In this document: piece after piece, positions 30,499-48,352 of the stretch
Layout of the letters: each line of letters opens with the position of its first letter
How positions within the stretch are numbered: position 1 is the stretch's first letter
NCBI GenBank assembly: GCA_963649755.1
Contig: CAVJJQ010000001.1
Location: 1-52,388 of the forward strand
Length of the DNA stretch: 52,388 nt
From: a bacterium
GTDB lineage: Bacteria; Bacillota; Clostridia; Lachnospirales; Lachnospiraceae
Direction of reading: 5' to 3'
Notes under the pieces: generated by a model
Told to the model about the DNA's origin: nothing
What the model saw: the letters and a program-made list of their open reading frames with translations, nothing else
Databases searched by the model: none
Translations under genes and position numbers: made by a program

Positions 30499-30634
30499 GA
30501 AAAAATACCTCGTAGTTTTATTTGTGCGTAAGCACTCATCTATTCTACCTAAATTGGAATGAATATTCAACGCAAACTTGATTATTTCGGGTGCAAATTG
30601 TATCATTTGTTTAAGTAAATGCGGAGGCAAAAAG

Positions 30635-31207
30635 ATGTCATCACTTACCAAGCAGGCCATAATCGACTGCACCATAAGTCTTGCAGAACAGAAGCCTATC
30701 AAGAAGATAACTGTAAACGACATAGTAAAGGGCTGCGGTATCACCCGAAATACCTTTTACTATTATTATCATGATATTTACGATGTATTGGATCAGATGC
30801 TGATTTCGCAGATAGAAGAACTGCGTGAAAAGAATGTCGGAAATTACGACAAATTTTTGTTTGATTTGATTGAACATGCATCCATGTACAAAAAACTCTG
30901 GAGAAACCTTTACAAGTCCATGGGACACGAAAATCTCCAGCACTACGTGCAAAAAAAAGTTCATTACCTCTTCAAAGAGGGTATTGAGAATCAAGTCGGT
31001 GAAGGCGCCCTAAGCGACACGGACATGGAAATCCTCTGTGCATTCTACGAGGAAGCTATCTTCGGAGTCCTTGCGCGCTGGCTCAGAGGCGACGCAACCA
31101 TCAGCACCCGCGAAGAGCTCCACGACTTCACCGAAAGACTGAGAGTCCTCTTCAACGGAGTCTTGCCCTTGATGGTGTCGAATGCGAAAGAAAGTAAAGA
31201 AAAGTAA
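30635..31207 (+). CDS. TetR/AcrR family transcriptional regulator
   Basis: KITVNDIVKGCGITRNTFYYYYHDIYD helix-turn-helix; start at MSSLTK with RBS GGAGG. Confidence 0.92.
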   Translation: MSSLTKQAIIDCTISLAEQKPIKKITVNDIVKGCGITRNTFYYYYHDIYDVLDQMLISQIEELREKNVGNYDKFLFDLIEHASMYKKLWRNLYKSMGHENLQHYVQKKVHYLFKEGIENQVGEGALSDTDMEILCAFYEEAIFGVLARWLRGDATISTREELHDFTERLRVLFNGVLPLMVSNAKESKEK

Positions 31208-31241
31208 AACCAGGCTTCGATTCACCTATCTAATCTAAATC

Positions 31242-31398
31242 GCTCCGATTCACCAAAGGCTACGTGTTTTCAGACGTGCTGACCATTCCGGCGAGCCCAT
31301 TAAACCAAAAATCGTGTTCGGGTACGGCCTCCACGATTTTTAGGTCTCACCTCCATAGCACTCAAAAGAAAACACGTCAGCCTTTGTGCAATCGGAGC
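31242..31398. other. Long nested inverted-repeat element (structured RNA or MITE-like)
   Basis: Pairings GCTCCGATT/AATCGGAGC, CAAAGGCT/AGCCTTTG, ACGTGTTTTC/GAAAACACGT, GTGCT/AGCAC, AAAAATCGTG/CACGATTTTT. Confidence 0.6.
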
Positions 31399-31399
31399 T

Positions 31400-32044
31400 C
31401 TATTTTTTTTCTTTCCTCAGCGAGAACTTACTCTCCGTTCCGGCCTTCAATTTCTTAAAGTTCGGATAATGACGAACTATTACGAGTAAAGCAGAAACCA
31501 AACAGAGTATCCATACCCAGCAGCTGTCCGGCTTTAAAAAGAAAAGCGCTATCGGACAGGTAATGGAAGCTGTACAGGAGGCAACGGACATGTATTTCCA
31601 GATTGCAAGCACTATGAAGAATACGAGCATGGCGATGAGCGCCATTCTGTAATCCACAAACCACGTGGTCGCAAACCCTGCCATAAAAGCCTTCCCGCCT
31701 TTAAAGCCATACCATATCGGGAAGCAGTGTCCGAACATTGCAAAGAATCCCGAAAATGCGGCTCCGAATTGCCACATGTCATAAGTATTCTTAAGAATTA
31801 CTGCCGAAATGCATACCGGAAGCGCAGCCTTTATGATGTCAAGAAGCATTACGCTCCATGATAAAGGATTGTTTCCGTAGACTCTCTTAAAGTTCGTAAA
31901 TCCCGGATTCCCGCTTCCTTTTTCCCTGATGTCTTCATGATATACAAGCTTTGACATGATGATTGCGGGGTTTACTCCGCCTATCAGGTAGCTTACAACG
32001 GCAATTGCCAATAATATTAATATAAGCGTTAAAGTTTCGTTCAT
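31400..32044 (-). CDS. plsY: Acyl-phosphate:glycerol-3-phosphate acyltransferase
   Basis: SYLIG, DIREKGSGNPGFTN, LDIIK, GHCFPIWYGFKGGK, RH.PN motifs. Confidence 0.93.
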   Translation of the reverse strand: MNETLTLILILLAIAVVSYLIGGVNPAIIMSKLVYHEDIREKGSGNPGFTNFKRVYGNNPLSWSVMLLDIIKAALPVCISAVILKNTYDMWQFGAAFSGFFAMFGHCFPIWYGFKGGKAFMAGFATTWFVDYRMALIAMLVFFIVLAIWKYMSVASCTASITCPIALFFLKPDSCWVWILCLVSALLVIVRHYPNFKKLKAGTESKFSLRKEKK

Positions 32045-32052
32045 TTAAACTC

Positions 32053-33717
32053 CTATTCGGCTACGAGCAGGAACTGATATACGTCCTGTTTGCCGTCCGA
32101 TTCAACCGCTTCGATGCAGGGGTTTATCGACTTTGCATAGCTTGCCAAAGCATTCGATACGCTCTCGTCACAATCCTTTCCTCTGATTACAAGGAGGATG
32201 TCATGATTTTTAAGATTCAGTCTGTCAACCGTTTCCTTTGCCGCATCAATCAGCTCTTTCTTTGAAGAAACAACTTCCTTTTTAAGAATTCCTATGTACT
32301 CGCCCTCTTTGATATCAATACCGTTAAGAGAAGCATCGCGTATACTCTTCGAAATTTCCGCTGTTTCAACGCCTTCCATGGAGGCCTTCATGGACTCTTC
32401 GATTTCCGCGGGTGAAAGTCCGTCCATATCGAGCATTCCGAGGATTGCGTAGGCATCGCCGATCGAATGGGTCGGAATTACGTGAACATTTGACTTATCG
32501 TATAAAGAAGCTGCCTGTGAGGCTGCCATAAGTATATTTCCGTTGTTTGGAAGCACGAAGATATCGTCGGCATTTACGCGGTCAAAGCTCTGGATAAAGT
32601 TCTCTGCGGAAGGATTCATGGTCTGTCCGCCGAAGATCACCTCATCAACACCCATGTTAATGAAGTCGTTCTTGATGCCCTCACCGTTTGCAACGACAAC
32701 AATACCGAGCTTCGAACGCTTCTTGGGAGTTAAATCCTTGTCCGATTCGCTTGCGGCGCCTGTTTCAAGATTGTTGTGCTGAAGCATCATGTTTTCAATC
32801 TTGATGGTCAAAAACTCGCCGTACTGCTGGCAGAACTCAAGCACCTTGTAAGGTGTCATCGTGTGAACATGCATCTTGACAATGCTTCCGTCCTTTATGC
32901 AGACGATGGAATTTCCTATGCTCTGAAGGAAATCCCTGATAATGTTTACATCAAAGTTTTCATAATCGCACTTTGAGCTCTGAAGTCTGAGTAAGGTCTC
33001 TGTGCAGTATCCGAACTGAAGCTCCGATTCCGGTCCGAAAGCATCCAAGTCTAAAGAAACTGACTTTTTAGTTTCTTTTTCATCGAAAGCCACATCCGTT
33101 TCGTCGTACTCGCCTGTCAGATAGTTGGCCATACCCTCTGCAATGTACACAAGACCCGCTCCGCCCGAGTCAACAACGCCCGCCTCTTTCAATACATGAA
33201 GAAGATCCGGTGTTCTCTCAAGCGACTGTTTGGCGCTGTCCACGAAGTGTTCCATGAACTCGTCGGGCTCTTCGCATCCAGCCTCGCAGGCTCCGTTTGT
33301 AGCATCCTTTGCAACCGTGAGAATCGTGCCCTCGGTAGGTGTCATGACCGAATCATAGGCTCTCTTTACGCCTGACTTGAAGGCTTCTTCCAAAGCCTTC
33401 GTGTCTGCAAGGTCGAGTCCTTCAAAACCGTCCGCAATGCCTGCAAAGAACTGAGAAAGAATAACTCCCGAATTGCCTCTTGCATTAAGCAGCATTCCCT
33501 TTGCGACCTTTTCGGCAGCCTCGGAAATAGACTCCGTATCGTTGATCTCGACATCGGCTCCGCCGCGCAGAGTCATCATCATGTTGTCGCCGGTATCACC
33601 GTCTGGAATCGGGAATACATTCAAATCATTTACTTCGTTTACGAATCTTTTTAAGTGGCGGGCTCCTACGCCGATCATCTCGGCGTAAGCGCGTCCGTTA
33701 AGCTCATGTGCTATCAT
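32053..33717 (-). CDS. fakA: DAK2-domain fatty acid kinase subunit A
   Basis: NDLNVFPIPDGDTGDNM, ARGNSGVILSQ, YCTE, KMHVHT, GGQTMNPS. Confidence 0.9.
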   Translation of the reverse strand: MIAHELNGRAYAEMIGVGARHLKRFVNEVNDLNVFPIPDGDTGDNMMMTLRGGADVEINDTESISEAAEKVAKGMLLNARGNSGVILSQFFAGIADGFEGLDLADTKALEEAFKSGVKRAYDSVMTPTEGTILTVAKDATNGACEAGCEEPDEFMEHFVDSAKQSLERTPDLLHVLKEAGVVDSGGAGLVYIAEGMANYLTGEYDETDVAFDEKETKKSVSLDLDAFGPESELQFGYCTETLLRLQSSKCDYENFDVNIIRDFLQSIGNSIVCIKDGSIVKMHVHTMTPYKVLEFCQQYGEFLTIKIENMMLQHNNLETGAASESDKDLTPKKRSKLGIVVVANGEGIKNDFINMGVDEVIFGGQTMNPSAENFIQSFDRVNADDIFVLPNNGNILMAASQAASLYDKSNVHVIPTHSIGDAYAILGMLDMDGLSPAEIEESMKASMEGVETAEISKSIRDASLNGIDIKEGEYIGILKKEVVSSKKELIDAAKETVDRLNLKNHDILLVIRGKDCDESVSNALASYAKSINPCIEAVESDGKQDVYQFLLVAE

Positions 33718-33732
33718 ATTTGCCTCGTATTT

Positions 33733-34620
33733 TTATGCTTCTGCCCTGTAAGTTACTTCCTTACCGAATGCCCAAAGTCCGATTGCATCGGGTCCTATTG
33801 AAGCACCGATAATGGGTCCTATAACAATGGGAATGATTCCCTTACAATTAATCTTTTCTTTCACCATGTCAGATAAGGTCTTAATCTCTTCGTCGCTGCA
33901 GTCTGCATGTGCGAGGAAGATGAACTGTTCTTCGGGATTTTCAATTGCATCTGCCATGAGGTTTACCATCTCGGTAAAGGATCCCATTCTGCCCTTTGCC
34001 TTCTTGATAGGTGTCTGTGCGCCATCGGCATCTGCCGTAAGAATAGGCTTAACACCCATAAGGTTTCCGAAGAATGCCTTTGAAGCGGTTACACGACCTG
34101 CTCTCTTTAAGAAATCAAGTGTGTGAACTGCGCAGAACTCGTTTACATTGTTTCTTTTTGCCTTGACGGTATCGACGATCTCGTCAAAGGACTTGCCTTC
34201 TCTGTTAAGCTTTGAAGCAAGAATGCCAAGCATTCCTTCACCGATGCAGGCGTTAAGTGCATCGATACACTCGATTCGTCTGTCGGGATAATCCTTCAAA
34301 ATCTCACGTGCGGTTACAAAACCGGTGTTTACGGAACCGGACTGCTTTAAAGCGCAGCCGATGTAAATAATGTCCATACCCTGATCAAGGTATAAAGTAA
34401 AAATTCTCTTAAACTCTTCAACGGGAACCTGAGTCGTGGTAATCCTCTCGCCGTTTCTTAAGGCTCCGTAAAGTTCCTTGGGTGAGAAATACTCCCATCT
34501 TAAAGAAGCCTGAGTCTGTACTCCGTCACGAACGGTGTTCATGTGGGCATAATCAATATCATATTCATCAAGTAAGTCGCCGGTTAAATCGGCACAGGAA
34601 TCAACAATTATCTTTATCAT
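33733..34620 (-). CDS. DegV family fatty-acid-binding protein (FakB-like)
   Basis: IIVDSCADL, TTQV, LDFLKRAGRV, VKPIL, IGPIIGASIGP; start at MIKII (34620). Confidence 0.92.
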   Translation of the reverse strand: MIKIIVDSCADLTGDLLDEYDIDYAHMNTVRDGVQTQASLRWEYFSPKELYGALRNGERITTTQVPVEEFKRIFTLYLDQGMDIIYIGCALKQSGSVNTGFVTAREILKDYPDRRIECIDALNACIGEGMLGILASKLNREGKSFDEIVDTVKAKRNNVNEFCAVHTLDFLKRAGRVTASKAFFGNLMGVKPILTADADGAQTPIKKAKGRMGSFTEMVNLMADAIENPEEQFIFLAHADCSDEEIKTLSDMVKEKINCKGIIPIVIGPIIGASIGPDAIGLWAFGKEVTYRAEA

Positions 34621-34738
34621 ATTTTCCTCCGTATTGGGGCTTAACCCCGTTTTATACAGATTGCGGCACACTTTGCTTCACAATCTTACAGTCCGTATTG
34701 TATTTTTTTGTTTTTAAAGTCGTAAGATACAAAAAAAG

Positions 34739-34765
34739 GGTTTTGCACAAATTTTGTGCAAAACC
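34739..34765 (-). terminator. Terminator of the oxidoreductase-hyp operon
   Basis: GGTTTTGCACAA...TTGTGCAAAACC hairpin followed by T7 on the minus strand. Confidence 0.65.
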
Positions 34766-34867
34766 TCGTTTTTGTACAACTATAAAAAAATAACACGATA
34801 CAAATCACGTAGCATTTAACGATGACATGCTTAACTGCTCACTTTTACAGGCAGCAATCACCCTGCT

Positions 34868-35542
34868 TTACTGCTCGGTCTTTAAACTCTTTACTGCTCT
34901 CCTCACCCAGTCCGCAAGCTCATCCATGCCTTCGCCGGTCTTTGCGCTTAAGCTTATAATCTCGCCCTTCGGATTAAGCTTTCGGATGCGTTCCTTAGCC
35001 TTATCAAAGTCAAAATCAAAATAATCCTTCGTATCAATCTTTGAAATAACCGTAAGGTCCGAAATACTGAACATCAAAGGATATTTCAAAGGCTTATCGT
35101 CGCCCTCGGGGAGCGAAAAGAGCATCATGTTCTTATGAGCTCCCGTATCAAACTCGGCGGGGCAGACAAGATTTCCGATGTTTTCAAGAAAGATGATATC
35201 AAGACCTTCCGCATTAAACTCATCTATTGCTCGCCTTGTCATCTCGGCATCGATATGGCAAAGACCGCCGTTGTGTATCTGCAAAGCCTTAACTCCTGTT
35301 GCATCTGCAACCTTTGTGGCATCAAGGCTTGTCTCGATGTCAACGTCCATTATGCCTATCTTAAACTCATCCTTAAGAAGGTTTACAAGGCTTGTAAGTA
35401 AGGTAGTCTTTCCGGATCCCGGAGCCGACATGATGTTCAGCATAAAAGTCCCGGAAGCCTTTAATCTTTCCCTTAAAGTTAAAGCCTCCCTGTTATTGTC
35501 AGCATAGACATTTTCATGAATCTCAATAACCCTGACAGCCAT
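34868..35542 (-). CDS. hypB: Nickel incorporation GTPase HypB (copy 2)
   Basis: APGSGKTT, GGLCH, ENIGNLVCPAEFD, EGDDKPLKYP, SKID. Confidence 0.93.
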   Translation of the reverse strand: MAVRVIEIHENVYADNNREALTLRERLKASGTFMLNIMSAPGSGKTTLLTSLVNLLKDEFKIGIMDVDIETSLDATKVADATGVKALQIHNGGLCHIDAEMTRRAIDEFNAEGLDIIFLENIGNLVCPAEFDTGAHKNMMLFSLPEGDDKPLKYPLMFSISDLTVISKIDTKDYFDFDFDKAKERIRKLNPKGEIISLSAKTGEGMDELADWVRRAVKSLKTEQ

Positions 35543-36205
35543 TTAAAGCACCCCCTGTTCTTTCAACCGGTTCTTTAAATAATCCGTCCAGGCTTCAAAA
35601 CCCTCGTCATTCTTTGAGGAAATCATAAAGATTTCGGCCTTCGGATTTAACTTGTGGATGCGCTCCTTGCAAAGGTCGACATCAAAATCAAATACGGAAA
35701 GGGCATCGATTTTATTGATAAGCACAACGTCCGAAACGGTATAAACAAGCGGATACTTTGCAGGCTTGTCATCGCCCTCGGGCACTGAAAGAATCGTGAT
35801 TGAAAAATGTGCTCCGGTATCGTACTCCGCGGGGCAGACAAGATTTCCCACATTCTCGATAAAAAGAAGGTCGACATCGTCCGTTCCGAGTGCGTCAAGT
35901 CCCTGCTTTGTCATCTTCGCATCCATATGGCACATGCCGCCCGTATGAAGCTGAACCGCTTTCCCGCCGGCATTCGAGATCGTCTCGCAGTCAACACTTC
36001 CGTCAATGTCACACTCCATCACTCCGATGCGTACGTCTTTCTTTAAATGCCCTATCGTGCGGACAAGGGTCGTTGTTTTTCCGGATCCCGGAGAGGACAT
36101 CACGTTTATCATGAGTTTCTTTTTCCCTTTAAGCTCACTTCTGATGCCGTCCGCGGTCACCTCGTTGTCTTTAAATATGCCCTGTTTCAATTCAAGGATT
36201 GTCAT
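35543..36205 (-). CDS. hypB: Nickel incorporation GTPase HypB (copy 1)
   Basis: SPGSGKTT, GGMCH, ENVGNLVCPAEYD, EGDDKPAKYP, NKID. Confidence 0.93.
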   Translation of the reverse strand: MTILELKQGIFKDNEVTADGIRSELKGKKKLMINVMSSPGSGKTTTLVRTIGHLKKDVRIGVMECDIDGSVDCETISNAGGKAVQLHTGGMCHMDAKMTKQGLDALGTDDVDLLFIENVGNLVCPAEYDTGAHFSITILSVPEGDDKPAKYPLVYTVSDVVLINKIDALSVFDFDVDLCKERIHKLNPKAEIFMISSKNDEGFEAWTDYLKNRLKEQGVL

Positions 36206-36545
36206 ATACGCCTATCTCTTTTATGGTAAATTCATTGCCGCGAAGCAGGTAAGTGTTCTCACTCTTGCAATGGGGACAAATCTTTCCGTACTCAACGGTG
36301 GGATATTCCTGCTTACAGTCTTCGCAAAATGTCACTGCGGGAAGCGTCTCTATGTTGAGACTTGCGTCCTTTGTGACCTCTTCTTTTTTACGTGCCCAGT
36401 TCCAGCAATCAATAAGCTGTTCATGAATTACGCCTGAGACCTCACCGATCTCAAGCGTAACAAAATCAATCTTATCAACCGCATTCTCCAGGGCCACTTT
36501 CTTTACGTCCTTTAAGACGTAAAACGTAACTCCCAGTTCGTGCAT
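36192..36545 (-). CDS. hypA: Nickel metallochaperone HypA
   Basis: N-terminal MHE nickel motif, two CxxC (CEDC, CPHC), GNEF.IKEI. Confidence 0.95.
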   Translation of the reverse strand: MHELGVTFYVLKDVKKVALENAVDKIDFVTLEIGEVSGVIHEQLIDCWNWARKKEEVTKDASLNIETLPAVTFCEDCKQEYPTVEYGKICPHCKSENTYLLRGNEFTIKEIGVYDNP

Positions 36546-36555
36546 CTTTAACCTC

Positions 36556-39384
36556 TTAGTGCTCTATCTTCTTGTGAGTGATCATGTTGCCGATACGCTT
36601 CATCTGGTAAGGAAGAATAGCCTTAAACTTGTCCTCGGCAACGACCATCGTCGAGCATTCCGGATGGTCTCTGTGCAGGCTGATGGCATCAAAGCCGCAC
36701 TTTGTGGTGCATATACCGCAGCCGATACACTTATTCGTATCAACAACCGTCATACCGCAGCTTAAGCATCTTGCGGTTTCTTTCTTAACCTGCTCCTCTG
36801 TAAGCGTTACCTTGTAATTTGAGAAGGTATTCTTGGGAAGGCTGTCATTGTGACCTTCGTACTGCTTGGGTGCTCTGTCATAGCTCTCAACGAGGATATC
36901 GTCCGTATCAAGTGCCTTGAACTCCCAACGGTTACGTCCCGTAACCATATGACCGCCGCGTACGTATCTGTGCATGGACTCTGCCGCAATCTTGCCCTGT
37001 GCAATTGCATCGATTGCAAACTTGGGTCCGGTATAAACATCGCCGCCTACGAAGATATCGGGCTGGCCTGTCTGGAAGGTAAACTTGTCTGCAACAATTG
37101 CAGGTCCCTTAAACTCAACTTTTTCGTCTTTTACAAGGTCTCCCCATACGGAAGCCTGTCCGACTGCAAAGATTACTCTGTCGCAGTCAATCTTAATTGT
37201 TTCATTTTCATCATAGGTAGGAGCGAATCTGCCCTCTGCATTCTTAACGGAGAGACACTTCTTGAAGATAATGCCTACGACCTTGCCGTTCTCCGTAAGA
37301 ATTTCCTTGGGACCGTATCCGCACTGAAGCTTGATACCGTCTTCCTTCGCTTCCCTAACCTCTTCGGGTGATGCGGGCATCTCTTCAGGGGACTCAAGGC
37401 AAAGCTCGTGAACCTCGCTTGCTCCGTTTCTTGCGGAAACCCTTGCTGCATCGATTGCTACGTTTCCGCCTCCGACTACGACTACGCGGCCCGTGTATTC
37501 CTTGCCGCCGCAGTTTGCATCGTGCAGATATTCGATAGCCGTCATGGTGCCTTCCGCATCGTCACCGGGTACTCCGGGACGTCTGCCTGCCGAGCATCCG
37601 ATTGCGATATAGAATGCCTTGTAGCCCTGCTCTCTTAATTCGGATAAAGAAATATTCTTGCCAACCTCAACACCTGTCTTAATCTCAACGCCCATCTTAC
37701 GCATTACGTCGATTTCGGCTGCGATGACGTTCTTTTCAAGCTTATAGGAAGGGATACCGTAGCGAAGCATTCCGCCGGGCTCCTCATATTTTTCAAATAC
37801 GGTAGGCTTGTAGCCTCTCTCCGCAAGATAGAAAGCAGCGGTTAAGCCTGCGGGGCCGCCTCCGATGATGGCAAGCTTCGTATCAAAGCCGTCCTTGTAA
37901 ATGGACTGGGTGCTGGCGGGAACGACCTTTTCGGGGATGTATCTGGTCTCTGCCTTCAAATCCTGCTCTGCGATAAATCTCTTTACCGCATCGATTGAAA
38001 TGCATTCGTCAATCTTGCCTCTCGTGCAGGCATCCTCACAGCGGCGGTTACAGATGGCACCGCATACTGCCGGGAAAGGATTCTGCTTCTTGATAAGAGC
38101 AAGAGCTTCTTTATACTTGCCCTGAGCGGCTTTCTTTAAGTAACCCTGAACCGCAATGTGTGCGGGGCAGGCTGTCTTGCAGGGTGAAGTACCGGTTTCG
38201 TGACAGTTGATACGGTTGTTGTCACGATAGTTGTAATCATACTTATCCTCGCCCCACTTCGTGGCATCGGGAAGCTCGTGCTTGGGATACTTAACTTCCG
38301 ATCCGTCTGCCTTACAAAGCTTCTGGCCAAGCTTTAATGCACCTGCGGGACAATACTCAACGCATCTTCCGCATGCAACGCACTTATCCTTGTCAACGTG
38401 AGCCACATAAGCGGAACGTGACATATTCGGGGTATTGAAAAGCTGTGAAGTACGTAATGCATTACAGATTTCAACGTTACAGTTACAGATACCGAAGATC
38501 TTATTCTCACCGTCGATGTTGGTAATCTGGTGTACGAAGCCGTTATCCTCGGCACGCTTTAAGATGTCGAGAGCCTCTTCCTTGGTGATGTCGTGACCCT
38601 TTCCGGTCTCACGGCAGTAATCTGCGAAATCGCCTACGCCGATGCACCAGCCGTAATCGTCGTCCGCACAACCGTCATCGATTGCCTTTCTGGATGCACG
38701 GCATGAACATCTGCCGACACCGATCTTTCCTTCGTACTTTGAAAGCCAGTAGGAAAGCTTTTCGATATCAATGGCCTCATTCTCCATGGAGATAGCCTTT
38801 TCAACCGGAATAACGTGCATTCCGACACCGGCACCTCCGGGAGGAACCATCTGGGTAATTCCCTTAAGCGGGATATAAGTCATTCTTTCAAAGAAGGCTG
38901 CAATATCGGGATGATCCTGTAATCTCTTGTTGGCAGGGTCCTTTACATCCTTCATCTCTTCCATGTTGAAAAGCTCTGCAGAGCCCGGTACAAACATGGG
39001 AAGTATATAACGTCTCTCGGACTGCGGAGCGGTACGTCCGTTATGATCGTAATGATAGCCGTAATCGTACTCTAAAAGTCCGATATAGCTCATTTCGTCA
39101 AGAAGCTTTTGGAACTGCTCCTCGCCGTCTGAAGTAATATTGTTTAACTGACAGAGTTCACCGAAGGTGTAAGGCTTTCTCTTGTCCATTTTAAGCGCTA
39201 CATCCGCCATTTCATCGGTAATGATCTCGGCAAGTCCCCAATACTCCGGATCCTCAACCTTGACTCCGCCGAAAATATGTCCCGCAACGTCCGTTATCTT
39301 GCGTCCGAGCTTGACGATTTTCTCCCTGGCGGGGTTGTCGTGTTTGTGGTTGGCTTCCCACTTTTCGTAATTTTCAAAATCCAT
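36556..39384 (-). CDS. Multi-Fe-S, FAD/NAD(P)H oxidoreductase (GltD-like core with a Cys-rich N-terminal domain)
   Basis: CVACGRCVEYCP, PCKTACP...CGAICNRRCEDAC, GGGPAG, GGGNVAID, RCLSCG, CIGCGICTTKC. Confidence 0.9.
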   Translation of the reverse strand: MDFENYEKWEANHKHDNPAREKIVKLGRKITDVAGHIFGGVKVEDPEYWGLAEIITDEMADVALKMDKRKPYTFGELCQLNNITSDGEEQFQKLLDEMSYIGLLEYDYGYHYDHNGRTAPQSERRYILPMFVPGSAELFNMEEMKDVKDPANKRLQDHPDIAAFFERMTYIPLKGITQMVPPGGAGVGMHVIPVEKAISMENEAIDIEKLSYWLSKYEGKIGVGRCSCRASRKAIDDGCADDDYGWCIGVGDFADYCRETGKGHDITKEEALDILKRAEDNGFVHQITNIDGENKIFGICNCNVEICNALRTSQLFNTPNMSRSAYVAHVDKDKCVACGRCVEYCPAGALKLGQKLCKADGSEVKYPKHELPDATKWGEDKYDYNYRDNNRINCHETGTSPCKTACPAHIAVQGYLKKAAQGKYKEALALIKKQNPFPAVCGAICNRRCEDACTRGKIDECISIDAVKRFIAEQDLKAETRYIPEKVVPASTQSIYKDGFDTKLAIIGGGPAGLTAAFYLAERGYKPTVFEKYEEPGGMLRYGIPSYKLEKNVIAAEIDVMRKMGVEIKTGVEVGKNISLSELREQGYKAFYIAIGCSAGRRPGVPGDDAEGTMTAIEYLHDANCGGKEYTGRVVVVGGGNVAIDAARVSARNGASEVHELCLESPEEMPASPEEVREAKEDGIKLQCGYGPKEILTENGKVVGIIFKKCLSVKNAEGRFAPTYDENETIKIDCDRVIFAVGQASVWGDLVKDEKVEFKGPAIVADKFTFQTGQPDIFVGGDVYTGPKFAIDAIAQGKIAAESMHRYVRGGHMVTGRNRWEFKALDTDDILVESYDRAPKQYEGHNDSLPKNTFSNYKVTLTEEQVKKETARCLSCGMTVVDTNKCIGCGICTTKCGFDAISLHRDHPECSTMVVAEDKFKAILPYQMKRIGNMITHKKIEH

Positions 39385-39534
39385 TCCTTCACCTCATATA
39401 GTTTGCTATTGCTAACTCCCGTAAGAGCAATAAAGCGACGCAAAGCGCCGCAATTTCGTATTGATTATATTAAATTTTTCTAAATAAGTAAATCGGTTTC
39501 GGGAAAAATATTGGTAAATGTGCAATAAAATTTT

Positions 39535-40122
39535 CTAACTGTTTAACTCCCGTTCGTCAATATTAACATTTCTGAGTACCAGAATTATTAAAACCATGAA
39601 AATGCACGTAAGTATGAGCATTATCAGAAACGCAATATCGTTTTTTAAGAAAATCCAGTCATCATAGACCGCACGGTAAATAAACTCCGCTATCAAAGCC
39701 ACGAACATAAAAAGAAAAACAGCCGGCGCACTTCTGTAAATGCGGATAATGCTGTGCATATAACGGTCACGCTTCATGGGTTTACAATTAAACGGAAGCG
39801 AGCAGACTCCGAGAAACAAATAAAGAAGCGGTATAAGCCCTATCGCCGTAGGCATTGAAACAAAGGCCCACCAGGCCGTTGTGTGGGACATGGAAACCGC
39901 CGCACCTGCCGTAATCAAAGCCGCAACCGAAATAAGGGAAACTGCCGCAAACCTAAGTCTCACACTTTTTTCCGGGTCCATGAATTTTATCATCGGGCCC
40001 ACATAAGTGGTGCGTTCCCTGGTTTTACCCTTTTCGTCCTCGTAGAGTTCGGTTTTATAGTCATTAACATATTTCAGCGAGTCCTTTAGTTTAAAGAACT
40101 CGCCGTTAAAAAATACACCCAT
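39535..40122 (-). CDS. Four-TM hypothetical membrane protein
   Basis: Four hydrophobic helices; directly downstream of the ABC operon with RBS AGGTG. Confidence 0.75.
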   Translation of the reverse strand: MGVFFNGEFFKLKDSLKYVNDYKTELYEDEKGKTRERTTYVGPMIKFMDPEKSVRLRFAAVSLISVAALITAGAAVSMSHTTAWWAFVSMPTAIGLIPLLYLFLGVCSLPFNCKPMKRDRYMHSIIRIYRSAPAVFLFMFVALIAEFIYRAVYDDWIFLKNDIAFLIMLILTCIFMVLIILVLRNVNIDERELNS

Positions 40123-40135
40123 ATTTAATCTTCAC

Positions 40136-41734
40136 CTAAAACTTATTCGGCTCTGCCTTGTACTCGAATAAATAGTTCTTATTCTCATCAAGCTTCCTCT
40201 CGGGGAAGTGGCATGCACAGAAGTGTCCGGGTTCAATCTCCGTTAAAGGAGGAGCCACACGCCTGCACTTATCCGTTGCCATGTAGCAGCGCGTACAGAA
40301 TTTACAACCCTCGGGAGGATTAACAGGGCTCGGAATGTTTCCTTCGAGGATGATTCTTTCTTTATCCGCGGAATCGGGATCCGTCGTGGGAATCGAAGAA
40401 AGAAGGGCAACCGTGTAAGGATGGCGCGGATCGTCGAAAATCGTCTTCTTGTCCGCAAGCTCCACGATATTTCCTAAATACATTACCACGATTCTGTCGG
40501 AAATAAACTTAACGACCGACAAATCGTGAGAAATAAACATGTAGGTAAGGTTCTGTTTTTCCTTAAGCTCCTGAAGCAGGTTAATGATCTGAGACTGAAT
40601 GGATACGTCAAGAGCGGATACGCATTCGTCGCATACCACGAACTTGGGCTTAACCGCCAAAGCTCTTGCTATACAGATACGCTGTCTCTGACCGCCCGAA
40701 AACTGGTGAGGATATCTGTGGAGCATGTACTCCTGAAGTCCGCACTTTTCCATCGTGTCCACGATGTACTCACGCATTTTGGCCGATCCATGCTTAAAGA
40801 AATGGTGTGTAACAAGACCTTCTTCAATAATCTGGCCCACCGTGAAACGGGGATTCAGTGAAGAGTAAGGATCCTGGAAGATAATCTGCAAGTCTTTCCT
40901 TAAGGCTCTCATTTCCCGGTAGGTAAGGCGTGCAAGGTCTATTCCGTCATCAAGCATATCTTCGTGCTTTTTAAACTCTTCATCGCCTGAGTACTGCTCT
41001 TTAATCTTTGAAAGCTTGTCCTTCAAAGCGCCGATGCTCTTTTCGTGTCCGTCAATTATGGCATCCAGTTCTTTAAGTTTACCTGAAAGCTTATCAGCCT
41101 TTTCCTTAGTGCCTTTGTCGTCAGTACCCTTTGAAATGAGGTGCTCTAAGTGCTCATACTCGACGTTAATAAGCTGTCTTTTTTCCTTTACTTTGTTTCG
41201 TTTTTCTTCTTCCTTGAAGATTTCAAGCAAGAGTCTTCTTCCCTCGGCATCGTCCCTTACGGTGAAGCCTCCGAGAATCTTTACAAGGTTGCTTAAAGCG
41301 GTTTGCTCCTCGCACTTTGCGATATTTAAATCCTGAAGGAGATAAAAGTCTGCTCCGTCCTCGCCACCGGCATCCGCTACCTTCTTTTCAAGTGTTGCCA
41401 CTTTGCTGCGTGCATGGGACAGTTTCTTTTCGTACTTTTTGTAATTTACGATGGTATCCTTCACATAGGAGGGAGTAAGCTCGCTTAAGGTCGTTCCGTA
41501 GTAAAGAGTGCAGCCTGCCGTCTGAGGGTAAAGCTGCAGTAAGACACGTCCGAGCGTGGACTTTCCGCATCCCGACTCTCCTACGACGCCTAAGGTTTCG
41601 CCTTCGTAAATATCTATCGTAATGTCTTCATTTGCCCTGACATAAAGCTGCTGCTTCTGAAAGATGGAGGACTTTGCAACAGGGAAGTACTTTTTTAAAT
41701 TAGTGATTGACAGTAATTTTTTTGTGTTCTGCAC
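40136..41734 (-). CDS. oppF: Oligopeptide ABC ATPase, OppF-like, with long helical insertion
   Basis: GESGCGKST, IFQDPYSSLNPR, FSGGQRQR, C-terminal PPEGCKFCTRC Fe-S motif. Confidence 0.88.
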   Translation of the reverse strand: MQNTKKLLSITNLKKYFPVAKSSIFQKQQLYVRANEDITIDIYEGETLGVVGESGCGKSTLGRVLLQLYPQTAGCTLYYGTTLSELTPSYVKDTIVNYKKYEKKLSHARSKVATLEKKVADAGGEDGADFYLLQDLNIAKCEEQTALSNLVKILGGFTVRDDAEGRRLLLEIFKEEEKRNKVKEKRQLINVEYEHLEHLISKGTDDKGTKEKADKLSGKLKELDAIIDGHEKSIGALKDKLSKIKEQYSGDEEFKKHEDMLDDGIDLARLTYREMRALRKDLQIIFQDPYSSLNPRFTVGQIIEEGLVTHHFFKHGSAKMREYIVDTMEKCGLQEYMLHRYPHQFSGGQRQRICIARALAVKPKFVVCDECVSALDVSIQSQIINLLQELKEKQNLTYMFISHDLSVVKFISDRIVVMYLGNIVELADKKTIFDDPRHPYTVALLSSIPTTDPDSADKERIILEGNIPSPVNPPEGCKFCTRCYMATDKCRRVAPPLTEIEPGHFCACHFPERKLDENKNYLFEYKAEPNKF

Positions 41735-42713
41735 TGTTTCTTTCCTCCTTTACAGGGTAGAAGCACCTGATCTTCTGGTTGTCGCTTACGGAAAGAAGCT
41801 CAGGTTCTTCATTTAAGCACTTCTCGGTACAATATTTGCATCTGGGCGCGAATTTGCAGCCCTTGGGAAGTGCAAGCGGGTGAGGTACGACACCGGGGAT
41901 AGGCTCAAGTCTTTCCGCATCGGTATCAAGCCTCGGAATTGAATTCATAAGGCCTTCCGTGTAAGGATGGCTCATGGTCTGCTTGTGGAAGATGACGTCC
42001 GAAGGCGCATGCTCTACGACCTGTCCGCAATACATAACGGCTACGTCATCCGCCATCTCGTTGATGACGCCTAAGTCATGGGTGATGAAAATAATCGAAG
42101 CATTTGTAGATGCCTTCAGATTGTTCATAAGCTTAAGAATCTGTGCCTGAATGGTAACGTCAAGGGCCGTCGTGGGCTCATCGGCAATTAAAATCTTCGG
42201 CTTGCATGCAAGTGCCATGGCAATCATGACTCTCTGACGCATACCTCCCGACAACTGGTGAGGATACTGCTTGACCACCACCTCGGGATTGGGAATCTGT
42301 ACGTCTTTTAGCATCTTAACCGCTTCAAGGTGTGCCTGCTTCTTAGTCATTCCCTGATGTATGATGAAAGGCTCGGACAACTGCCTCTCTATAGAAAAAA
42401 CGGGATTCAAGCTCGTCATGGGTTCCTGGAATATAACGGAAATCTCGTTTCCTCTGATCTTGCACATTTCGCTCTGCGAAAGCTTTGTAAGGTCACGGCC
42501 TTCAAGTAAGATTTCACCGCTCTCTATATAACCGTTTCCGTCAAGTAACTGCAAAATGCTCATCGCGCTTACTGATTTTCCGGACCCGGACTCTCCTACG
42601 ATACCGATTGTTTTTCCTGCTTCAAGGGAATAGGAAACACCGTTAACTGCCTTAACAATACCCTTTTTCGTAGTAAAGAAGGTATGTAAATCTTTAACTT
42701 CCAATAATGCCAT
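41700..42713 (-). CDS. oppD: Oligopeptide ABC ATPase, OppD-like
   Basis: GESGSGKS, FQEPMTSLNP, LSGGMRQR, DEPTTALD. Confidence 0.92.
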   Translation of the reverse strand: MALLEVKDLHTFFTTKKGIVKAVNGVSYSLEAGKTIGIVGESGSGKSVSAMSILQLLDGNGYIESGEILLEGRDLTKLSQSEMCKIRGNEISVIFQEPMTSLNPVFSIERQLSEPFIIHQGMTKKQAHLEAVKMLKDVQIPNPEVVVKQYPHQLSGGMRQRVMIAMALACKPKILIADEPTTALDVTIQAQILKLMNNLKASTNASIIFITHDLGVINEMADDVAVMYCGQVVEHAPSDVIFHKQTMSHPYTEGLMNSIPRLDTDAERLEPIPGVVPHPLALPKGCKFAPRCKYCTEKCLNEEPELLSVSDNQKIRCFYPVKEERNSAEHKKITVNH

Positions 42714-42727
42714 TTTACGTATCCCCC

Positions 42728-44716
42728 TTACTTTTCATTCGTGGACTTAGGGTCCATGACGTCACGAAGCGTATCGCCGATTGTATTGATACATACGGCC
42801 GTGAAGCACAAGATTACGGAAGTAAATACCCACTGCCACCAGAAGTTGATGGCTGCGGTCGCATTGCTGGCTCTTGTCAGCATGTTGCCCCATGAAGGCT
42901 GAGGGTACATAACACCGAAGCCAAGGAAGGAAAGTGAAGTTTCCGTCTGCATGGAAGCCGCAAAGCTTAAAGTAATATTTACCAAAATTACCGAGAATAC
43001 ATTCGGAAGTATATGCTTAAACGCAATTCTTGAGCTCTTAACACCCATTGCCTGAGCAGCCGTTACATACTCGGACTCTCTCGCAACAAGTATCTGGGCA
43101 CGGGTGATTGAAGCAAAGCCGGGCCAGCTCAAGACGCCGAGTACTACCATCATCATGAGTAACTTTTGATTCTGGCTGATGGCGGTCTGCGCAAGAAGTG
43201 AGTTCATGATCAGCATGAACGGATACAGAGGAAGTGAACTGAATACTTCCGCAATACGCATTAGAAGAATATCAACCCAGCCGCCTGCGTAACCTGAAAT
43301 GGTACCGATTGATACGCCCAAGATTACCTCAATGATAACGGCTATCAAACCGAAGGTCATGGTAACACGTCCGCCGGCTACAACTCTTTCAAAGATATCC
43401 GCACCGACATCGTCCGTACCGAACCAGAAGCCTTTAAGGCCCCAGGCCGTCATATAGTCGCCATTTGCGTCAACCGCATAGCTCTGGAAGCCGCCCGTGT
43501 AAATCTTTGCAACTCCCGTTAAACCTTCGGGTTCCTCTGCCTGATAGTAGTGGTCTCCGCCGAAGGAATAAACATTTCCGAGACTGGTAAGTACGGTATA
43601 GTGATAGTTTCCTGCCTGAATGTCAACAACGTACTCGCCGTCCTTGAAGGTAGGAACATCGATGCTGTCTGCGACAAAGTCACCTGCCAAAGCAATGGAT
43701 CCGTCATCAAGGAGCAGGCAAACGCTTGCCGTGGTTGCGGTCATCGATTCAATCTTACGTCCGTTTAAGAACGTAAACATCTTGGTGGTCTCGCCTGTAA
43801 GTGAAGTGCGGGCCATATCGTAAAGTCCGCGGGTTCCGGTGTAAACCGAATTTCTGTCGTCGGTAAGTCCGACTATATAGTTGAGGGTAAAGTCAATATC
43901 CTCGATATTGTCCTTGCCTATGAAGCTGTCCATATTGGGATAGGTCTGCTTGTTGCCCCATACGTAGACGGTGCCGTCATCCATCAGTAAGGCCGTAGCC
44001 TGATAGCCGCAGGTAAGCTTCTTGATATGCTCGACTTCAATTTCACCGTTTAATACGACGTCGGGTACACAGGCAATATTGGGATTTTCCAAAAGAGCAT
44101 CCGTAACGGCGTACTGTCCGAAACGGTTTGAACCCCAGCCGTAAAAGTTTCCGTCATAGTCGAAGGCAACCACATGGTCAACACCGGCTGCGACAATTGC
44201 GATATCAGCGTTCTGAACCTCTTCGGGGATATCCTTTACGTTTAAGCCGGTAGCTCCGATTTTCGAAGCTCCCCATACATAAACGTCACCCGAATTTGAA
44301 AGTCCCACGGAAAAAGAACCGTAGCTGTCGATTTCCTTAATATCGTTCTTTAATTCGTCCGGAACCGACATCATGGTGCGGTTCGGAGGGATGTTCTTTA
44401 ATGTGGTCTCCGTATATGAATCCGAATACTTCTCCATGAAGTTAGGAACAATGAAGACGATAAGGAACATAACGATTACGACAATAACCGAAACAACGGC
44501 AAATTTACGCTTGACAAAAGTATTGAACATCTGCCTTCCCGGGCTGATGATAAGGTCCGAATCGTCAGGAACGTTTTCTTTGGCTTCTGTCTCTTCTTTT
44601 TCTTTATCCTTGTTTAAAAACCACTTTTCCTCGTACTTTTGTCCCATGAACCAGCGCACGAACCAGCGTGCAAGGACTCTGAACGGATTTTCTTTTTTGT
44701 GACTAACTTTGCTCAT
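42728..44716 (-). CDS. oppC: ABC permease, OppC-like, with inserted RCC1-like repeats
   Basis: FGTDDVGADIF, EYVTAAQAMG EAA loop, PQPSWG; repeated G..H..A...DG.VY.WG units. Confidence 0.88.
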   Translation of the reverse strand: MSKVSHKKENPFRVLARWFVRWFMGQKYEEKWFLNKDKEKEETEAKENVPDDSDLIISPGRQMFNTFVKRKFAVVSVIVVIVMFLIVFIVPNFMEKYSDSYTETTLKNIPPNRTMMSVPDELKNDIKEIDSYGSFSVGLSNSGDVYVWGASKIGATGLNVKDIPEEVQNADIAIVAAGVDHVVAFDYDGNFYGWGSNRFGQYAVTDALLENPNIACVPDVVLNGEIEVEHIKKLTCGYQATALLMDDGTVYVWGNKQTYPNMDSFIGKDNIEDIDFTLNYIVGLTDDRNSVYTGTRGLYDMARTSLTGETTKMFTFLNGRKIESMTATTASVCLLLDDGSIALAGDFVADSIDVPTFKDGEYVVDIQAGNYHYTVLTSLGNVYSFGGDHYYQAEEPEGLTGVAKIYTGGFQSYAVDANGDYMTAWGLKGFWFGTDDVGADIFERVVAGGRVTMTFGLIAVIIEVILGVSIGTISGYAGGWVDILLMRIAEVFSSLPLYPFMLIMNSLLAQTAISQNQKLLMMMVVLGVLSWPGFASITRAQILVARESEYVTAAQAMGVKSSRIAFKHILPNVFSVILVNITLSFAASMQTETSLSFLGFGVMYPQPSWGNMLTRASNATAAINFWWQWVFTSVILCFTAVCINTIGDTLRDVMDPKSTNEK

Positions 44717-44727
44717 TTCCGCCCTCC

Positions 44728-45771
44728 TTACTTACTGATACGTACTCTCGGGTCAACAAGCCCGTAGCACAGGTCGATTACGATATTTGCAAAAAGTCCT
44801 ATGAATGTATAAAGAACCTGTAAAAACATTATCAGGTCATAGTCGGCGTTGAGTGTTGCGGAAAGAAGCATCTGTCCCATTCCTTTAAAGCCGAACATGG
44901 ACTCCATGATCATGGCGCCGGATATGATTCCGAAGAAGCCGCCTACGATGATGGAAACAAGCGGAACAAGGGCATTTCTCCATGCGTGTGAATAAATGAC
45001 CGCCTTTTCCCTAAGTCCCTTGGCGCGTGCCGTACGGATACAGTCAAGGCTAAGCGCATCTATCATTGAAGCACGCGTGATACGCGTAATACTTGCAAGA
45101 GATGAGAAAACAAGGCAGATGGTAGGAAGGGTAATGTGCCAGAGCACGTCCTTCGCATTAGCCCACCCGGTAAGCGTTGATCCGGGCGTCTTCATGCCGG
45201 ATACGGGGAACCACCCGAGTATTGAGCAGAAGAACACGATAAACAAAATGTAAATTATAAAGCTGGGGGTTGAAAAGCCGATAAGTGAGAACACCTGAAC
45301 GCCTCTGTCAAAGCGCGAGCCTTTTTTGACGGCACATTTGATTCCGAGAGGAATGGTGATTCCCAAGACGGCAATTTCGGAAACAAGGCCTATGAGCATT
45401 GAATTCCTGAGAGCCGGTCCCACGACATTCACAACGGGTGCGGCATACTGATAGGAATATCCGAAGTTGCCCTGGAAGATACCGTTTAACTTTCCGTCAT
45501 AGAAGGGAGCAAGACCGAGCCATCTTAAGTAAAGAACGACATTATTGTCCGTGTCCGTTCCGTACATACGCTGGTATTTAAGGTATAACTCGTCAAATTT
45601 GGTATCTCTCTCCGATGCGGAAATAGAATTTTTGATACTGTTGAGCTCTGTCTTTGCGTCAGTGTAGGCGCGGTTTGCAGGCATCAACTGATACAGATTG
45701 AAAAGAATGAATGTGAGCAGTATGAAAACCGCAAGCATATAGAAGCATCTTTTTGCAACGTACCTTCCCAT
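44728..45771 (-). CDS. oppB: ABC permease, OppB-like
   Basis: GNFGYS, HITLP, RTARAKGL, HAWRNA, LVDPRV; start at MGRYV (45771). Confidence 0.92.
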   Translation of the reverse strand: MGRYVAKRCFYMLAVFILLTFILFNLYQLMPANRAYTDAKTELNSIKNSISASERDTKFDELYLKYQRMYGTDTDNNVVLYLRWLGLAPFYDGKLNGIFQGNFGYSYQYAAPVVNVVGPALRNSMLIGLVSEIAVLGITIPLGIKCAVKKGSRFDRGVQVFSLIGFSTPSFIIYILFIVFFCSILGWFPVSGMKTPGSTLTGWANAKDVLWHITLPTICLVFSSLASITRITRASMIDALSLDCIRTARAKGLREKAVIYSHAWRNALVPLVSIIVGGFFGIISGAMIMESMFGFKGMGQMLLSATLNADYDLIMFLQVLYTFIGLFANIVIDLCYGLVDPRVRISK

Positions 45772-45808
45772 TGGTGTTACCTCTTTCAGATTTTTTATGA
45801 AAACGGAG

Positions 45809-45906
45809 TATAGGATTAGGGTATAGAAAGAAAGCCTTTTTTCTTTCAACACCTTAATCCTATAAAATCGGAGCCCGGAGGGCAAACGCCCTCTCCGGAA
45901 CTCCGA
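45809..45906 (-). promoter_or_regulatory. Intercistronic stem-loops after the binding-protein gene
   Basis: TATAGGATTAGGGT/ACCTTAATCCTATA and CGGAG.CCGGAG/CTCCGG..CTCCG hairpins between oppA and oppB. Confidence 0.55.
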
Positions 45907-45914
45907 AAAACTAT

Positions 45915-48179
45915 TTACTTGTTAAGCCAGTAAACATCAGCATAGTCCTTGATGTAGTAGTTCGAATAATCGGAATACATTGAAGGATCGATTGTGTTGT
46001 AGTAAGCATAATCGTAAACTGCTGAGTTAAATCCTGTTGCAAAGTTGAATGCACAGTACATAGGTGAACCTGAATAGTAACCGTAAACAGCTGCCTGATA
46101 AAGCTCGTCAAGCATGGGTGCGAAATCACCTGAGGTGTTGTAAACAACCATACCTGCTGCGGTTATGTTTTCATTTTCCTTTAAACCGGTCTGAAGCAAA
46201 TCGGTAAACTCGTTGTTGGTAGTGCCATACCAGTTGATTACAAGAGGCATGTAGCAGTAGTCACCGATTTCAACGGTCTTGTAAGTACCGTCAACTGACT
46301 GATAGTTCTTGTCGTTGTCTGAAATGATAGAAGTAGGAATTCTCTTATAACGTACGCCTTCGGTATACTCAGAACCGTCTGCTGCATAGGTCCAGCCGTT
46401 CTCTTCGAGAACTGCGATAGCTGAGTCAACTGAGGTTGCATATGCGTTAAGGGTCATACCCTGTTCAACAGCCTTCTCATACATCCAGGAACCTGTGTAG
46501 TAAGGTCCGTCAACAACACCGCCGTAACCGCCTGTGAAGTCCTTTGCGAACTGTCCGCGGTTCATGCAGTATGCAATTGCCTGACGTACTTCGGTAAACT
46601 GAACCGGGCCGTAGTCAGCACGGAACTGAAGCTTACCATAGCCTGCACGGCTGTAGTGAATGTAAGCTGCCTTGCCGTCTGAAGAATCTGCATAAGCCAA
46701 AGCTTCATCGGTAGCTGCACCGCCTGTGATTCCTGCAAGAACATCGATACCGCCTGCCTTGAAGTCTTCAAGCTGGGTATCTGAAACAATCTTCTTGTAG
46801 GTAATCTTCTCGATTGAAGGAACTACTCCTTCATAGTTTCCTGCAAAGTACTCGTTCTTTGTAAGAACTGCACTTGAGTCTGTCTCGTCAAATGATACTA
46901 CGCAGTAAGGGCCTGAATAAGGATACTTTGCGTAAACATCTGCGCTTGTTGAGGTGCAAGCCTCTTCAATCTGGTCTGCTACAACGTAGCTTCCGTCATC
47001 GTTCTTTGCATAGAAAGAATCTGAAAGGTAACATCCGTCACCGTCATCAAGAATCTCTGCATCGCCAAGGAACATGGGTGCATAGTATGCTGAGAATGAT
47101 GCATAGGTAATGTCATAGAAGTAAGGAATGTAGTCTGCTCCGATTGTTACAGAGAAGGTGTAATCATCAATCTTGTGAAGACCTGCAAATACCTTGGTGC
47201 CTTCTGTTGAATCGGGACCTGTGTATGCAAGGTAATCAGCCTGTCCTAATACAGAAAGGGACTGAACCTGATAGCCTGATGCTTCTGTAGCAACTACGGT
47301 ATTGAATGCCATAGGGAATGCAAGATAGTCATCAGCTGTTACTTCGCTGCCATCGGAGAACTTAAGTCCTTCCTTGATGGTGATTGTGAAGGTCTTGGAA
47401 CCGTCATCGTTAACAACTTCGTCGTGAGAAGCTACAACAGTATCGTTCCAGGCATATCCGCCTTCTTTTGTCTTTGCAACGGTGTCAAGTCCGGTTGTAA
47501 GAGTCTGAACATCAAGATCGGATGCGCCGGGGTTGGATGAACCGAAGCTTGAATAACGGAACTTACCGCTAAGCTCGGTTACGGAACCGATAATGATATC
47601 ATTGTCTGCCTTAGATGAAGTCCAGTCGATCAAAGCATCTGCGGGATCCCAGTAAGGGTTTGTGGGATGCTCTTCAACTCCGCCGATTTCGGTGTTGTAA
47701 ACATCGTAGTACTCATTTGAGTAAAGCGGAACTTCGGGCATTAAGTAGTTCCAACGGGTGATGTAAAGTCTCCACCATGCTGCATAAACATCATCGGTGG
47801 TCTCATACTCACCTGCGGGCTCGTCATTGTAAACCATTGCCATTGAAAGGAAGTCAAGACCTAAAAGATGCTGCTCCCCGTCAACTGTGATGTAAGCAAA
47901 TCCTGTATCGGGATCCTCTGTTACATCAGCGATTGTAATGTCCTTACCAACTGCTTCATAAAGAGAAGTATAGTCAGTTCCATACTCCTTGCTTGAAAGG
48001 GACATTACGTCAAACTCGTCGCACCAATATTCATCAGCGGGATCGGTAACAGTTTCCGAAACGCTTGAATCAGTGCTCTCACTTACGCTTGCGGTAGTGT
48101 CTCCGCAGGCAGTAAGCATGCCTGCAGTCATTGCCAAAGCAAGTACAGCTGCAAGGCTTTTCTTCATTGCCTTTTTCAT
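45915..48179 (-). CDS. oppA: Family 5 ABC substrate-binding lipoprotein, OppA-like
   Basis: Lipobox LTAC, TFTITIKEGLKFSDGSEVTADD, YSGPY, EVRQAIAYCMNR; start at MKKAMKK (48179) with RBS GGAGG. Confidence 0.88.
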   Translation of the reverse strand: MKKAMKKSLAAVLALAMTAGMLTACGDTTASVSESTDSSVSETVTDPADEYWCDEFDVMSLSSKEYGTDYTSLYEAVGKDITIADVTEDPDTGFAYITVDGEQHLLGLDFLSMAMVYNDEPAGEYETTDDVYAAWWRLYITRWNYLMPEVPLYSNEYYDVYNTEIGGVEEHPTNPYWDPADALIDWTSSKADNDIIIGSVTELSGKFRYSSFGSSNPGASDLDVQTLTTGLDTVAKTKEGGYAWNDTVVASHDEVVNDDGSKTFTITIKEGLKFSDGSEVTADDYLAFPMAFNTVVATEASGYQVQSLSVLGQADYLAYTGPDSTEGTKVFAGLHKIDDYTFSVTIGADYIPYFYDITYASFSAYYAPMFLGDAEILDDGDGCYLSDSFYAKNDDGSYVVADQIEEACTSTSADVYAKYPYSGPYCVVSFDETDSSAVLTKNEYFAGNYEGVVPSIEKITYKKIVSDTQLEDFKAGGIDVLAGITGGAATDEALAYADSSDGKAAYIHYSRAGYGKLQFRADYGPVQFTEVRQAIAYCMNRGQFAKDFTGGYGGVVDGPYYTGSWMYEKAVEQGMTLNAYATSVDSAIAVLEENGWTYAADGSEYTEGVRYKRIPTSIISDNDKNYQSVDGTYKTVEIGDYCYMPLVINWYGTTNNEFTDLLQTGLKENENITAAGMVVYNTSGDFAPMLDELYQAAVYGYYSGSPMYCAFNFATGFNSAVYDYAYYNTIDPSMYSDYSNYYIKDYADVYWLNK

Positions 48180-48352
48180 AATTATCCTCCCTTGAAAAAG
48201 ATTTGGCATCTGCCATGGATTTAATTAAAAACGTCTAAGTCTTAAAGCTTTATCACTACACTTGATTAAAACGATAAAGTTTAAGACTATATGGAAAAAG
48301 GGGGCACTACAATAGTATGTCCCCTCTTTGGCACGTCCTTAACTATTTGAAC

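Follow-up and report, generated by a model that had tools for sequence, protein, structure and literature searches.

An IsrA-type flavoprotein encoded with HypA and two HypBs in a Lachnospiraceae genome: a likely new kind of nickel enzyme

Which protein is served by the nickel chaperones HypA and HypB when they are encoded beside a flavoprotein and no hydrogenase is in sight? The question is raised by a 52,388-nt stretch of DNA (the window) of contig CAVJJQ010000001.1 from a Lachnospiraceae bacterium (assembly GCA_963649755.1). Four minus-strand open reading frames (ORFs) in the window encode an Fe-S flavoprotein, then HypA, HypB1, and HypB2. HypA and HypB deliver nickel to two proven clients, [NiFe]-hydrogenase and the urease of Helicobacter. 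An earlier, sequence-only reading of the locus proposed that this maturation set serves the Cys-rich domain of the adjacent flavoprotein. The proposal gains strong genomic support in this work because no other nickel client was found and because hypA and hypB track the enzyme across genomes. It is not new, however, since nickel has already been proposed in print for IsrA-type enzymes (Kronen et al., 2023, PMC10134865). New in this work are the family-wide co-occurrence counts; the doubled hypB is a modest local variant. Judging from genomic association, the IsrA-type family is likely a new kind of nickel enzyme.

Placement of the flavoprotein in the IsrA family

By sequence, the flavoprotein is a member of the IsrA clade 9 family. 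Aligned over 925 columns, it shares 62% identity with P0392 (WP_005358529.1), which stands beside IsrA in the tree file s0005.pdf of PMC10134865 and is the one accession present there among the 11 searched. The content of s0005.pdf leads us to infer that it shows Fig. S4, the tree of clade 9. Two Faecalibacillus homolog accessions are not in that file, where five other Faecalibacillus entries are present.

In the accessible parts of PMC10134865, IsrA (VUZ27132.1, Acetobacterium wieringae ISORED-2) is described as a 901-amino-acid (aa), isoprene-induced oxidoreductase. Its five-gene operon, isrA-hypA-hypB-ferredoxin-hypA with a ferredoxin of 350 aa, sits in a genome that lacks NiFe hydrogenase and hypCDEF. 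Among 988 IsrA homologs, HypA is found nearby for ~73% and HypB for ~56%, and nickel is proposed at the six-cysteine 'cluster V'. Two 2026 Pelotomaculum preprints, in their accessible parts, keep the word 'putative' for IsrA. Compared with IsrA as described there, the flavoprotein has the same length of ~900 aa, an unannotated N-terminal domain, and DPD-II and FAD/NAD domains. Both proteins have two CxC motifs 74 residues apart (C180/182 and C254/256 in IsrA, C226/228 and C300/302 here). The CxC pairs and the ferredoxin motif lie at a constant 46-residue offset between the two proteins, and the offset of ~29 at the C-terminal end suggests that the 26-aa insertion (756-782), which together with at least 77% identity marks IsrA proper, is missing here. 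Both enzyme genes adjoin hypA and hypB in hosts without matches for NiFe hydrogenase or the other hyp genes (HypC was not searched here). Unlike the isr operon, the unit here is enzyme-hypA-hypB-hypB with no ferredoxin gene, and neither a second hypA nor a free-standing N-terminal domain was matched in its genome. Unlike the IsrA host, the source genome also lacks matches for carbon monoxide dehydrogenase (CODH)/acetyl-CoA synthase (ACS) and Lar proteins.

Residues 1-325 of the flavoprotein have no Pfam or NCBIfam match. The six cysteines (Cys6) and H285 of this region (Table 1) are conserved in 82-84 of 84 alignment rows and are kept down to ~35-45% identity. C239 is a cysteine in 49 and a valine in 30 of 79 close homologs, and D242/D243 are variable. 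Among the N-terminal Cys/His motifs pointed out by the sequence-only reading, Cys6 and H285 are thus conserved, whereas its 'C..D' is not a conserved ligand. The remainder of the protein carries four canonical [4Fe-4S] sites with 16 conserved cysteines and matches PF14691, PF00037, and PF07992. This core, FAD/NAD(P) plus 2x[4Fe-4S], is similar to that of NfnB, GltD, DsrL, and DPD-type enzymes (28-39% identity over ~440-510 columns to NfnABC 9BOV, StnABC 8OH5, NfnI 5JCA, and GltD 6S6S). Unlike those enzymes, the flavoprotein has an added N-terminal winged helix and Cys6 domain and a split ferredoxin, and it scores below every NCBIfam cut-off for them. Against solved structures, the Cys6 region gave 0 phmmer hits and no Foldseek hit at E 0.001, with the Cys domain not folded alone. 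A profile search against solved structures matched only the winged-helix and ferredoxin parts. VIA rows were confined to model residues 7-117. In the ESM Atlas, the only clusters to come up were labelled Fer4 or had no name, under 0.9.

Nickel clients and the co-occurrence of hypA and hypB with the enzyme

The source genome (G000; 95.5% complete, 226 contigs) was searched with the profiles PF00374, PF01924, PF00449, PF03063, PF09861, PF01969, and PF03598, and no match was found for NiFe hydrogenase, HypD, urease, CODH/HCP, LarA, LarC, or ACS beta. The HypD-, HypE-, HypF-, and Ech-like proteins of the related locus L102 also had no tblastn match at 1e-6. The sequence-only reading noted no NiFe large subunit, hypCDEF, or ure genes in the window, and at the level of matches this holds across the assembled genome for NiFe hydrogenase, HypD/E/F, and urease. 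Ni glyoxalase I, acireductone dioxygenase, and nickel superoxide dismutase (Ni-SOD) were outside the scope of these searches. The genome has one FeFe-hydrogenase-domain match. It carries one hypA and two hypB genes, all within the four-gene unit, and the N-terminal domain occurs in one copy. A DUF5692 gene, a common neighbour of IsrA-type enzymes, lies unlinked at G000:C40:14605-15711 and its product is 54% identical to the L033 protein.

Among the related loci (best 80 of 131), the order enzyme-hypA-hypB-hypB is exhibited by 17. The hypA gene comes next in 56 of the 66 loci with at least 1.5 kb downstream, and the other 10 genomes carry hypA elsewhere. A hydrogenase search of 50 of the 80 genomes gave matches in none of the 17 four-gene genomes and in eight of the 33 others. 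The 17 four-gene genomes, for which completeness is not given, also have no urease and no CODH over cut-off. The four-gene order thus recurs in genomes without matches for these enzymes.

The same association was seen in 250 genomes of the family (at least 90% complete, one per genus). The N-terminal domain was matched in 49 of them, where 45 strong matches are full-length enzymes and four weak matches are short proteins. A hypB is present in all 45 enzyme genomes, and each of them has an enzyme copy that lies no more than 5 kb from hypA (51 of 60 copies). HypD is present in 38 of the 250 genomes, 10 of which carry the enzyme. In the 212 genomes that lack HypD, hypA was found in 35/35 with the enzyme vs 2/177 without it, and hypB in 35/35 vs 1/177. 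In the exception shared by both counts (G057), a stand-alone protein of 442 aa that carries the same Cys domain immediately precedes hypA-hypB, and the other hypA exception lies at a contig end. The 35 HypD-less enzyme genomes include one with a hydrogenase subunit, one with urease, and five with CODH; 29 have none of these. These counts come from kin genomes that are not independent samples, and HypB scoring was limited to 11 candidates per genome.

Stand-alone proteins of 442 aa and 369 aa with the Cys domain and a ferredoxin, but no flavoprotein part, are followed by hypA-hypB at L083:4714-7116 and L084:4263-6468. This arrangement suggests that the Cys domain is the client of the chaperones. 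More distant stand-alone types at L085-L087 have no hypA. At L056:10016-11759 and L058:3634-5377, genes of a cbiM/cbiQ-type Co/Ni energy-coupling factor (ECF) transporter directly follow the enzyme gene.

A further, conserved cassette lies directly upstream in 30-32 of the 80 loci (L015, L017-L020, L022-L027, and others). It encodes a CbiA-family (Pfam) ATPase that carries a CxC motif, two HGD-D subunits, a BcrAD/BadFG activator, and a 240-aa CdhC-like protein. We take the ATPase to be CooC-like; here lies a second candidate nickel insertase beside the enzyme. The cassette is absent from the source genome and from the 17 four-gene loci. A literature search, with most subscription journals outside its coverage, gave no account of this cassette and none of DUF5692 beyond the accessible parts of Kronen et al.

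Two other upstream genes were each observed in one of 117 loci. An oleate hydratase (MCRA) gene lies directly upstream of the unit at L089:8636-10405, and the gene of an amine-oxidase-fold FAD protein, presumably resembling a fatty-acid isomerase, lies there at L106:9186-10643. Fatty-acid biohydrogenation was rejected for the source genome, where neither protein has a tblastn match.

Metal loading, alternative readings, and the two HypBs

We favour, with somewhat better than even confidence, a mechanism of alkene reduction by an enzyme whose Cys6 site, loaded with nickel by the chaperones, ends an NAD(P)H-FAD-[4Fe-4S]x4 wire. By analogy with hydrogenase maturation, HypB would bind nickel at CH-x30-C, GTP turnover would move it to the MHE site of HypA, and HypA would hand it to the flavoprotein, into the Cys6 site. 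As in Nfn, GltD, and DPD, electrons would flow from NAD(P)H to FAD, through four [4Fe-4S] clusters, and to Cys6. NADH appears the likelier donor because CLE replaces the YRR motif that we take to mark NADPH users. The enzyme would then reduce a carbon-carbon double bond with these electrons. From the precedent of IsrA, the substrate may be an unactivated or conjugated alkene, and in a gut organism it would probably be dietary and not isoprene.

Several observations weigh against this mechanism. According to the accessible parts of PMC10134865, isoprene reduction is absent from Acetobacterium strains that carry 47-49% homologs, so the substrate cannot be deduced from family membership. No biochemical test of IsrA, including nickel measurement, was found in the literature search. 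A CbiM or NiCoT-type importer had no match in the source genome, which is a small point against nickel. The HypA CxxC site can bind iron in M. maripaludis, as far as the available part of the source goes. Among the 38 HypD-positive genomes, 14 have no HypA match and 16 have no HypB match, which points to copies overlooked by the family searches or to hypD clusters that serve a different purpose, and the 2/177 may be an undercount. Lastly, distant stand-alone relatives of the Cys domain in G072, G165, and G233 are without hypA, so the fold is not always hypA-dependent.

The alternative that survives best accepts the flavoprotein as the client of HypA/HypB but gives Cys6 another metal, as an all-iron cluster similar to the P-cluster or double-cubane clusters or as a Zn or Co site, with the chaperones repurposed for that metal or as an assembly aid. 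We consider it unlikely, though a serious competitor. The accessible parts of PMC10134865 also liken the Cys6 site to P-cluster and double-cubane sites, and the HypB site is described, in the portion of the source available, as accepting Ni or Zn; the iron bound by HypA and the missing importer match point the same way. On the other side, the Ni-specific N-terminal His2-Glu3 of HypA is present in 31/31 aligned copies, and hydrogenase loci employ HypBs of this same subfamily, encoded after hypE (L102 and L117).

A second alternative, which we find improbable, is that the flavoprotein works mainly in electron transfer or sensing, as an Nfn-like NAD(P)H:ferredoxin unit that feeds a partner enzyme and uses its metal-loaded winged-helix/Cys6 domain as a switch and not as a substrate site. 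The winged helix, the match of the core fold to NfnABC, StnC, and NfnI, and the upstream CooC-like/HGD-D cassette are in line with such a module, but that cassette is missing from the source genome and the 17 four-gene loci. Many relatives have a GntR or other regulator of their own, and IsrA is the sole isoprene-induced redox enzyme reported for A. wieringae in the accessible parts of PMC10134865. A hidden nickel client (an unassembled hydrogenase or an unsearched family) that merely shares its promoter with the flavoprotein is very improbable. In its favour, the assembly is split into 226 contigs with 4.5% missing, HypD occurs in 10 of the 45 enzyme genomes, and tandem hypB pairs lie near hydrogenase genes, but 29 of 35 HypD-less enzyme genomes and 17/17 four-gene genomes lack hydrogenase, urease, and CODH matches, and hypA is nearly confined to genomes with the enzyme or HypD.

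HypA passes PF01155 (102 bits vs a cut-off of 28.9) and stays under the cut-off of TIGR00100 (69.9 vs 88.1), and the MHE and both CxxC motifs are retained as the sequence-only reading described. HypB1 and HypB2, which are 47% identical, pass TIGR00073 with 239 and 234 bits (cut-off 121). The P-loop and metal ligands reported for both copies are present, with P-loop, CH-x30-C, and K-Y-P all kept, and the catalytic and metal residues are intact in both; CH-x30-C is described as the conserved HypB metal site in the accessible part of PMC13202556. Both are Type 1 HypBs with no N-terminal metal motif, and HypA and the HypBs share their motifs with the proteins of [NiFe]-hydrogenase and Helicobacter urease systems (2HF8, 4LPS, 2WSM). 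Unlike those systems, the source genome has the two HypBs in tandem and has no detected hydrogenase large subunit, HypD/E/F, or urease.

The two HypBs are, by sequence, old and separately conserved paralogs. They form separate long-branch groups across Lachnospiraceae, Coprobacillaceae, and others, with 16 rows and support 100/99 for HypB1 (L063 apart) and 17 rows and support 100/100 for HypB2. Identity is 75% within the HypB1 group, 71% within the HypB2 group, and 48% between them. Tandem hypB-hypB occurs in 11 of 58 HypB-positive genomes of the same family, with four pairs beside the enzyme, two beside hypD (G106 and G060), and the rest apart; G060 and G144 have no enzyme match. Tandem hypB as a marker of this enzyme was therefore rejected.

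In 29 tandem pairs (L099 and L102-L111 among them), which represent only ~three lineages with 20 pairs from one, NKxD is present in 27 of 28 readable first copies and S/TKxD in 25 of 28 second copies; single HypBs have N in 41 of 43. A reading of HypB2 as a degenerate GTPase (SKxD for NKxD) was ruled out because the solved HypB 4LPS carries SKAD at G4. Given this and the few lineages, S/TKxD is a signature and not a loss of function. In one lineage (L104, L106, and L111), the Cys-His metal pair of the second HypB reads Cys-Ala, and this lost ligand would suit a heterodimer.

The suggestion in the sequence-only reading that HypB1 and HypB2 may load nickel as a heterodimer thus agrees with their separate conservation, but not with the tandem pairs that lack the enzyme or with the absence of residue loss. 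A single hypB was seen in ~25 of 80 related loci. Moreover, most relatives have one hypB and tandem pairs lie beside hydrogenase-maturation genes, so a heterodimer would not be special to this enzyme. We regard it as an option that falls a little short of even chances, and not as a family requirement. Descriptions of tandem hypB heterodimers were not found among the papers listed. The fullest version of the mechanism, a new Ni-Fe-S alkene reductase class of gut anaerobes with Cys6 as the third HypA/HypB client, loading by a true HypB1:HypB2 heterodimer, and a division of labour arising repeatedly, is doubtful as a whole.

The locus and its significance

The coordinates are collected in Table 1. 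They agree with the layout given by the sequence-only reading, with a 10-nt gap between enzyme and hypA, a 14-nt hypA/hypB overlap, and an abutting second hypB. The terminator of that reading is backed by a hairpin with T runs between hypB2 and the convergent degV, but terminator-like sites as a class are not above shuffles (5 observed vs 4.6). The promoter match lies ~80 nt ahead of the flavoprotein start codon and is also present in L003 and L021. A G+C-rich inverted repeat at 39435-39451 directly follows it, is perfect in L003, and is a possible operator or leader hairpin. A conserved leader RNA or riboswitch was rejected (best Rfam E 0.087, far under gathering; fold z -1.0; conservation only to L003).

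Table 1. Features of the four-gene unit (window coordinates) and domains of its flavoprotein (residue numbers).
Feature	Position	Strand	Basis
IsrA/clade-9-type Fe-S flavoprotein, 942 aa	36556..39384	-	ORF, Pfam, motif alignment
hypA, nickel metallochaperone, 117 aa, MHE and two CxxC	36192..36545	-	profile matches, motifs
hypB1, G3E GTPase, 220 aa: ECD, HTGGMCH, KPAKYP, NKxD	35543..36205	-	profile, alignment
hypB2, G3E GTPase, 224 aa: DVD, HNGGLCH, KPLKYP, SKxD	34868..35542	-	profile, alignment
Hairpin of 12-13 pairs, T runs both sides, likely bidirectional terminator	34738..34766	.	pattern match only
Sigma-70-like promoter match TTTACT-17-TATAAT, 10/12	39464..39492	-	pattern match only
Flavoprotein: winged-helix subdomain	residues ~55-131		profile hits and structure-model comparison
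Flavoprotein: Cys6 domain	C226, C228, C247, C300, C302, C307 and H285		alignment
Flavoprotein: split 2x[4Fe-4S] ferredoxin	C335-C345, C886-C896		
Flavoprotein: DPD-II-type cluster domain	C402-C453 with C873, C876		
Flavoprotein: FAD/NAD(P) domain	residues ~503-797		

Just upstream on the same strand, 39535-48209 (-) holds an Opp-type ATP-binding cassette (ABC) operon with SBP_bac_5, a family including NikA, and a 195-aa membrane protein without Pfam match. The genes at 30578-34671 (+) converge on the unit and are not conserved beside it in other loci. They include DegV (Pfam) and others that we take, by motif, to be TetR-like, PlsY-like, and DAK2/FakA-like. The unit has 47.9% G+C vs 43.8% for the genome, and the same-genus genome G271 has no enzyme, hypA, or hypB match in profile searches. 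Both fit gain by transfer or patchy loss.

To our knowledge, only about nine or ten kinds of nickel enzyme are known, and a third client of HypA/HypB, if confirmed, would mean a new metallocentre chemistry. The enzyme is present in 45 of the 250 sampled genera of the family. The source locus does not originate the nickel hypothesis, which was already published; it is useful as a clean test case, with four genes and no other nickel client found. The same four-gene unit is carried by cultured Faecalibacillus isolates (L008 and L012) whose genomes are without hydrogenase, urease, or CODH matches.

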